Source of the DNA: Escherichia coli
GTDB taxonomy: Bacteria > Pseudomonadota > Gammaproteobacteria > Enterobacterales > Enterobacteriaceae
Assembly: GCF_030013595.1 (NCBI RefSeq)
Contig: NZ_CP122768.1
DNA: 64,000 nucleotides
Strand: one strand, 5' to 3'
Under the pieces are notes generated by a model that was given only the letters and a program-made list of their open reading frames with translations, searched no databases and was not told the DNA's origin. Positions within the stretch are counted from its first letter, which is position 1; every line of letters starts with the position of its first letter. Shown one piece after another: positions 19,806 to 19,836 of the stretch. Made by a program: the position numbers and the translations under genes.

Positions 19806-19836
19806 GGTTATTGGGTTATTGGGTTATTGGGTTATG
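19806..19836. repeat. Short tandem repeat, GGTTATTG x3 plus a partial fourth unit
   Basis: Read directly: ggttattgggttattgggttattgggttatg, 40 nt downstream of the ydeI stop. Confidence 0.8.

Follow-up and report, generated by a model that had tools for sequence, protein, structure and literature searches.

An octanucleotide repeat of variable copy number in the ydeI-dgcZ spacer of a small, mainly porcine group of Escherichia coli

VNTR loci made of short-unit repeats are used in MLVA for typing O157 and generic E. coli. In the contingency promoters of Haemophilus and Neisseria, repeat tracts lie between or upstream of promoter elements, as does the TAAA tract upstream of nadA. Stem-loops at the 3' termini of bacterial mRNAs serve either as intrinsic terminators or as protective hairpins. 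Here we describe an octanucleotide tandem array in the spacer between ydeI and dgcZ of E. coli that shares features with each of these systems. The array is an ordinary variable-number tandem repeat (VNTR), having all the defining features that were tested. In our judgement it is probably a lineage-restricted VNTR, one that would have arisen, and would still be changing, by replication slippage and that is most likely selectively neutral.

As at the MLVA loci of E. coli, the units of the array are short, perfect and head to tail, its alleles differ by whole units, its origin is presumed to be slippage, and it is stable in clones and variable between sublineages. Unlike those loci, it varies in length only within one small haplotype group of mainly porcine strains (23 of 5,378 complete genomes), and its copy number is very low, at no more than 5.75 units. 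With the contingency promoters it shares an intergenic position upstream of an adhesion- and biofilm-related gene and length changes in unit steps. However, it does not occupy the position of a phase-variable contingency locus: it lies neither between −35 and −10 elements nor between a known regulator site and the promoter, and it is about 175–205 nt upstream of the transcription start site. Its copy number, in further contrast to such promoters, is low and the same within near-identical isolates, with no sign of high-frequency switching. The resemblance to 3'-terminal stem-loops comes from a stable hairpin that begins 9 nt past the ydeI stop codon and is kept in all lineages examined; unlike in a terminator, the tail is not a canonical U-tract, and the repeat, attached to the foot of the hairpin, falls outside any terminator consensus. 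A search for literature with the repeat sequence in this context found none, the single match being to a wasp B chromosome, and the array is not part of any published typing scheme that we identified.

The window, by which we mean the whole 64-kb stretch of DNA that was analysed, holds the following features at and around the array.

19374–19766, plus strand: ydeI, the upstream gene, encoding an OB-fold stress protein of 130 aa; same orientation as dgcZ
19775–19810, plus strand: hairpin with a 14-bp stem (19775–19788 paired with 19797–19810) and an 8-nt loop, from RNA folding
19802–19809, plus strand: degenerate lead-in unit ATTAGGTT, in the ATTGGGTT register, from Tandem Repeats Finder and allele comparison
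19806–19835, plus strand: perfect tandem array, the polymorphic part, GGTTATTG three times followed by GGTTAT (1–5 full units in other genomes)
19829–19871, plus strand: proposed CysB-binding box of dgcZ (predicted), from EPEC primers (Supplementary Table 2, PMC13131220) mapped onto the window
19997–20036, plus strand: putative dgcZ core promoter and leader, with a −10 hexamer TAGAAT at 19997–20002 and GGA motifs at 20014–20016 and 20028–20030 corresponding to CsrA sites
20037–20927, plus strand: dgcZ, the downstream gene, encoding a diguanylate cyclase of 296 aa

The array starts 40 nt past the last base of the ydeI stop codon (19764–19766) and ends 202 nt ahead of the dgcZ ATG at 20037. The first-pass annotation had located it downstream of ydeI, in the ydeI-dgcZ intergenic region and upstream of the dgcZ promoter, and this placement is right. 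We placed the dgcZ core promoter, with transcription probably starting near 20009–20010, from the sequence, from a published primer (dgcZcsrARev) that ends at 20009 and from the silence of dgcZ fusions that contain the leader (PMC13131220). None of the ORFs listed for the window spans the array, no Rfam model matches the spacer at E ≤ 1, and the K-12 annotation has no feature in the spacer. With neither a curated model match nor other copies in the 64-kb window, the array does not belong to an Rfam or dispersed-repeat family. Across haplotypes, the promoter-proximal 90 nt are nearly invariant (1 variable site), while the proto-repeat, the short form of the array found in most genomes, has 4 variable sites in about 19 nt; natural SNPs concentrate in the distal spacer. 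The array sits in a weakly constrained, SNP-rich part of the spacer.

Read directly, positions 19806–19813, 19814–19821 and 19822–19829 are each GGTTATTG and 19830–19835 are GGTTAT, giving 30 bases without mismatch, or 3.75 units. The earlier description of a perfect octanucleotide array was therefore correct, but its end at 19836 and its count of about 3.9 units were not: because base 19836 is G and continuation of the repeat would require T, the end lies one base too far and the count is slightly generous. In the ATTGGGTT register the periodicity reaches left to 19802 with a single mismatch, the A at 19805. This position is G in sister alleles (GMF054, O169:H41, and the loci L030, L032, L035, L037 and L039), giving one extra perfect unit; the ATTG group, with GMF054 and O169:H41, accordingly has a perfect lead-in unit. 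Tandem Repeats Finder reported 19802–19835 with period 8, 4.2 copies, 96% matches and a score of 61, the highest of its 15 rows in the window (runner-up, 39). The double unit, a 16-mer allowed up to 2 mismatches, occurs three times, all overlapping at the array, against 0.03 expected from shuffles, and no further copies of the motif were found in the 64-kb window outside the array. At least two short units thus stand head to tail, above chance, as in a VNTR.

When a 601-base query was used, the match in most complete E. coli genomes spanned just 585 bases, and in the several loci that were read the 16-base shortfall was exactly two repeat units. We surveyed copy number using synthetic alleles with shared 60-nt flanks and 0, 2, 3 or 8 full units as queries. 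The locus was present in 5,378 complete E. coli genomes, with the following alleles.

1 full unit (1.75 units): 5,355 of 5,378 genomes, about 99.6%
2 full units (2.75 units): 6 genomes
3 full units (3.75 units): 9 genomes; the allele of the window and the commonest expanded one
4 full units (4.75 units): 3 genomes
5 full units (5.75 units): 5 genomes

Alleles with no full unit or with six or more were found in none of the 5,378 genomes surveyed. The expanded alleles occur in 23 genomes (about 0.4%), 22 of them from pig or wild boar, and include the PacBio-sequenced O139:H1 ST1 edema-disease strains W13-16 and P15-25. The single-unit state is usually imperfect, reading GGGTATTG GGTTAT in K-12 and B, GGGTACTG in O157 and GGGTATTG GTTTAT in EC10; the perfect 1.75-unit version, GGTTATTG GGTTAT, was found in about 158 records with the same 60-nt context. 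Alleles that we read directly consist of perfect units with identical left and right junctions. The comparison across genomes that the first-pass annotation proposed thus shows a locus that varies in whole 8-base steps, from 1, 2, 3 and 4 to 5 full units plus GGTTAT between constant junctions, as a VNTR does; copy number is not identical in all strains, the outcome that would have spoken against a variable repeat. Contigs encoding the same DgcZ variants held further alleles with 1, 2, 3 and 4 units. A metagenome scan via the right junction found no expanded allele, an absence that weighs little because a parallel scan, run as a control for the perfect allele without expansion, found just 4 contigs.

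To compare the array with its surroundings, the 12-kb regions of 17 genomes were aligned with the window, giving 10,355 ungapped columns with 198 variable sites. All expanded alleles belong to one local haplotype, and strains with identical 3–10 kb flanks differ in unit number. Members of the ST1 group differ by 0–6 SNPs over the 10,355 aligned sites, yet carry 2, 3, 4 or 5 units: no SNP separates ETEC1701 (3 units) from ETEC4068/4075 (2 units), or ETEC4077/K_EC180 (4 units) from ETEC4067/4070/1748 (5 units). The window group has 2 and 3 units, with 4 SNPs between the window (3) and HCP5S3_I2 (2). Over a 3.2-kb core, expanded alleles are 0–8 SNPs from the window and the 1-unit strains that were fetched are at least 30 SNPs away; a core with 0 SNPs carries both 2 and 3 units. 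Copy number changes faster than the flanks, as is typical of a VNTR.

The locus L037 (1 unit, ATTG lead-in) is identical to the window over 19314–20779. A direct 1-unit ATTA progenitor on the expanded haplotype was not found, the closest complete genome being PCN033, with 99.6% identity over 3.4 kb. Parsimony places at least seven single-unit changes in the small expanded clade and none in the other ~5,355 genomes, and no unit change is seen among the approximately 158 genomes that carry the perfect 1.75-unit allele on other haplotypes. Four 2-unit strains were absent from the top 12-kb matches. An independent origin of their alleles was considered and rejected, as they share the core haplotype; ETEC4068 and ETEC4075 rank low over 12 kb because of a downstream deletion, and HCP5S3_I2 and LCP30S3_I5 because of an IS91 insertion. 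No literature naming the ETEC40xx strains was found.

The window differs from the ST1 strains by 42 SNPs, clustered at 13.8–15.0 kb and 22.1–24.5 kb, and these clusters flank a shared core of about 5 kb. This mosaic pattern around the dcp-ydeI-dgcZ segment suggests that recombination may have acted here. No complete RefSeq genome matches the 12 kb of the window (13800–25800) exactly.

Slipped-strand mispairing had been put forward as a means by which the array could change copy number, and the variation in unit number between otherwise identical flanks is what such mispairing predicts. We infer replication slippage with a threshold, because the alleles form a whole-unit ladder, share identical junctions, recur on identical flanks and are confined to a perfect-repeat haplotype. 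The ancestral state would be a 14-nt proto-repeat of 1.75 units directly 3' of the ydeI hairpin, usually in its imperfect form (GGGTATTG GGTTAT). A first unit would then have been gained on one local haplotype that carried the perfect version (GGTTATTG GGTTAT), and once at least two perfect units were present, further whole units would be gained and lost quickly. The outcome would be the observed ladder, in which closely related pathogenic strains, mostly from pigs, have anywhere from 1 to 5 full units. Under such a threshold, the first gain would be rare and the subsequent steps much faster. Near-identical isolate sets share a copy number (ETEC6333/6334; EC556/571/581; ETEC4067/69/70/71), which argues against very high switching rates. 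The locus may be a clean natural example of the birth of a tandem repeat, with a 1.75-unit proto-repeat that is static in thousands of genomes and turns into a hotspot of mutation after a perfect second unit has appeared.

Length differences of this kind could instead be assembly artefacts or the footprints of insertion sequences. Eight bases is a common length for a target-site duplication, and repeats are prone to mis-assembly. However, these alleles are shared by complete assemblies that were made independently, in various laboratories and countries: Belgium and South Korea both have the 4-unit allele, and the 3-unit allele is present in France (PacBio), Japan, the Netherlands, Belgium and the USA. 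A regular ladder of identical units up to 5 would require repeated insertion and excision at one site. We rejected both explanations on these grounds and regard them as extremely unlikely.

Because near-identical isolate sets keep their copy number, the array suits use as a typing marker, as the first-pass annotation had suggested, within the expanded lineage; across E. coli as a whole this use fails, since the array is informative in only ~0.4% of complete genomes. Within the lineage it is plausible as a cheap, PCR-sizable marker with at least four length classes, by which edema-disease and porcine ETEC strains that are otherwise nearly identical (O139:H1 ST1 and its relatives) could be told apart.

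An EPEC study, citing RegulonDB, describes a CysB site, a CpxR site and two CsrA sites at dgcZ (PMC13131220). In its reporter fusions, a long dgcZ fragment that starts at window position 19777 responded to copper and a short one that starts near 19932 did not (PMC13131220). The nested 'cysB' 5' deletion primers from the same study, mapped onto the window, start at 19829, 19836 and 19848 (PMC13131220), so the proposed CysB box would begin at the last partial unit of the array. These results could be taken to mean that the array is a cis-regulatory tuner of dgcZ, whose unit number shifts the occupancy or geometry of an adjacent regulator, be it at the proposed CysB box or at the element needed for copper/Cpx induction, so that sublineages differ in c-di-GMP output. 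The near confinement of expanded alleles to pig strains and the length of the unit, which at 8 bp is about 0.76 of a helical turn (by arithmetic), are also in keeping with such tuning.

We consider this unlikely, as we do any regulatory effect of the array on dgcZ. The suggestion that the array could alter promoter spacing finds no support: 161 nt separate its end from the −10 hexamer downstream, and it is not between promoter elements. The CpxR box, the proposed CysB box and the CsrA sites are all downstream of the array, so a change in unit number alters no known spacing, and upstream of the array there is no known site, only the ydeI hairpin. In addition, the 14 nt directly upstream of 19836 are identical in every perfect allele, and the box and its distance to the promoter are therefore unchanged by unit number. 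The EPEC study calls the sites predicted and saw no effect of cysteine (PMC13131220); our literature search found no primary evidence for the CysB site of dgcZ. The array region is SNP-rich across lineages, and dgcZ itself is destroyed by IS91 in two of the expanded-array strains. CpxR-like matches in the spacer (19876–19890 and 19971–19985) lie downstream of the array and are at chance level: CpxR boxes (GTAAA-N5-GTAAA, up to 2 mismatches) were rejected as a candidate, with 82 matches in the window against 60 expected.

A G-quadruplex ((G3 N1-7)x4) was likewise rejected: four G3 runs are needed, and the allele of the window has three. The motif arises only with at least four units or with the ATTG lead-in and was never used in G-quadruplex-enabled folding.

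Neutrality of the array does face some counterevidence. The array adjoins 19777–19931, a stretch needed for copper induction of dgcZ in the EPEC reporter study (PMC13131220), it touches the 5' edge of the proposed CysB box, and the pig or wild boar source of nearly all expanded genomes (22/23) could reflect selection and not ancestry. It is nevertheless very unlikely that in pig-adapted pathogens the array is a heritable, stepwise-adjustable, far-upstream control element of dgcZ whose expanded alleles are kept by selection and not drift. If this were true, added units would lengthen or re-phase the copper/Cpx induction site at its 5' edge, or else change ydeI read-through, and sublineages would differ in c-di-GMP output under copper- and zinc-rich pig production. 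We favor neutral change by slippage, and the array leaves the current understanding of dgcZ or ydeI regulation unchanged. One practical consequence is that dgcZ promoter fusions made from such strains would vary in the length of the upstream fragment.

The hairpin folds with a ΔG of −21.1 kcal/mol (z −5.5 against shuffles), and its 3' arm runs into the array, whose first five bases make up the foot. It is retained in the K-12, B, O157, EC10 and GMF054 sequences (ΔG −19.2 to −22.5 kcal/mol) and is likely the 3'-end structure of the ydeI mRNA. Of the features of a rho-independent terminator, the stable G+C-rich hairpin after the stop codon is present and the U-rich tract is not; a scan for the intrinsic terminator consensus did not report the site because its tail, UUGGGUUAU, is a poor U-tract. 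When the hairpin 5' arm was scanned against genome contigs for other species, only a chance match, in Pseudomonas, was found.

As the foot and tail of this hairpin, the array might modulate ydeI termination, read-through into dgcZ or the stability of the ydeI mRNA. Its first five bases are within the stem, which is slightly stronger with the perfect GGT than with GGG (−22.5 vs −20.8 kcal/mol), and in the 5-unit allele the minimum-energy fold takes array units as an alternative 3' arm. Read-through is conceivable, since ydeI and dgcZ share an orientation and are both induced by envelope stress. However, the centroid structure is the same for every allele folded, and this structure and the first 9 nt past the stem are identical for all alleles with a perfect first unit, so the termination-relevant parts are constant across unit numbers; in none of the alleles is the tail a good U-tract. 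An effect on ydeI is thus quite unlikely. No Term-seq or 3'-end data mentioning ydeI were found in the searchable literature.

Two further features of the hairpin sequence were observed. A 14-mer from the array units, GGGUUAUUGGGUUA, can base-pair with the hairpin 5' arm (UAGCCUGAUGGCCU) over its full length through many G-U pairs, so extra units are potential register-shifted alternative 3' arms. The 8-base period also persists weakly in the hairpin 3' arm, where CTGGGCCA and TTGGGTTA differ solely by C/T.

Several other differences from K-12 and between strains were seen in the neighborhood. In the window lineage, ydeJ, which lies between ydeI and dcp in K-12, is absent (~19010–19373), and an 81-nt fragment annotated as '2-oxo-tetronate isomerase', a pseudogene at ~19054–19134 on the minus strand, stands in its place. 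The B2-type strains BEN5202 and 4/0 also have a ydeI that is truncated at the N-terminus. Just downstream of dgcZ, 20939–21152 (plus strand) is a full-length match to Rfam STnc560 (280 bits), the only hit of the Rfam search, which corresponds to the MgrR sRNA annotated in K-12; it is antisense to the small-protein genes mgtT/mgtS (about 21042–21241, minus strand). A GntR-family regulator and PTS IIB/IIC genes, not in K-12, lie between eamA and the mar locus (~23694–25800), and ETEC4068 and ETEC4075 have a deletion that runs from the PTS IIC gene into the mar region. The IS91-family insertion splits dgcZ in HCP5S3_I2 (L015, 6284–8887) and also in LCP30S3_I5, two UK pig isolates with the 2-unit allele that are the closest relatives of the window over 12 kb. 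In a 3-unit strain (L031, CP057738.1; 4205–5364), ydeE was not called and the start of eamA is about 350 bases earlier than in other loci, which suggests a deletion in ydeE.
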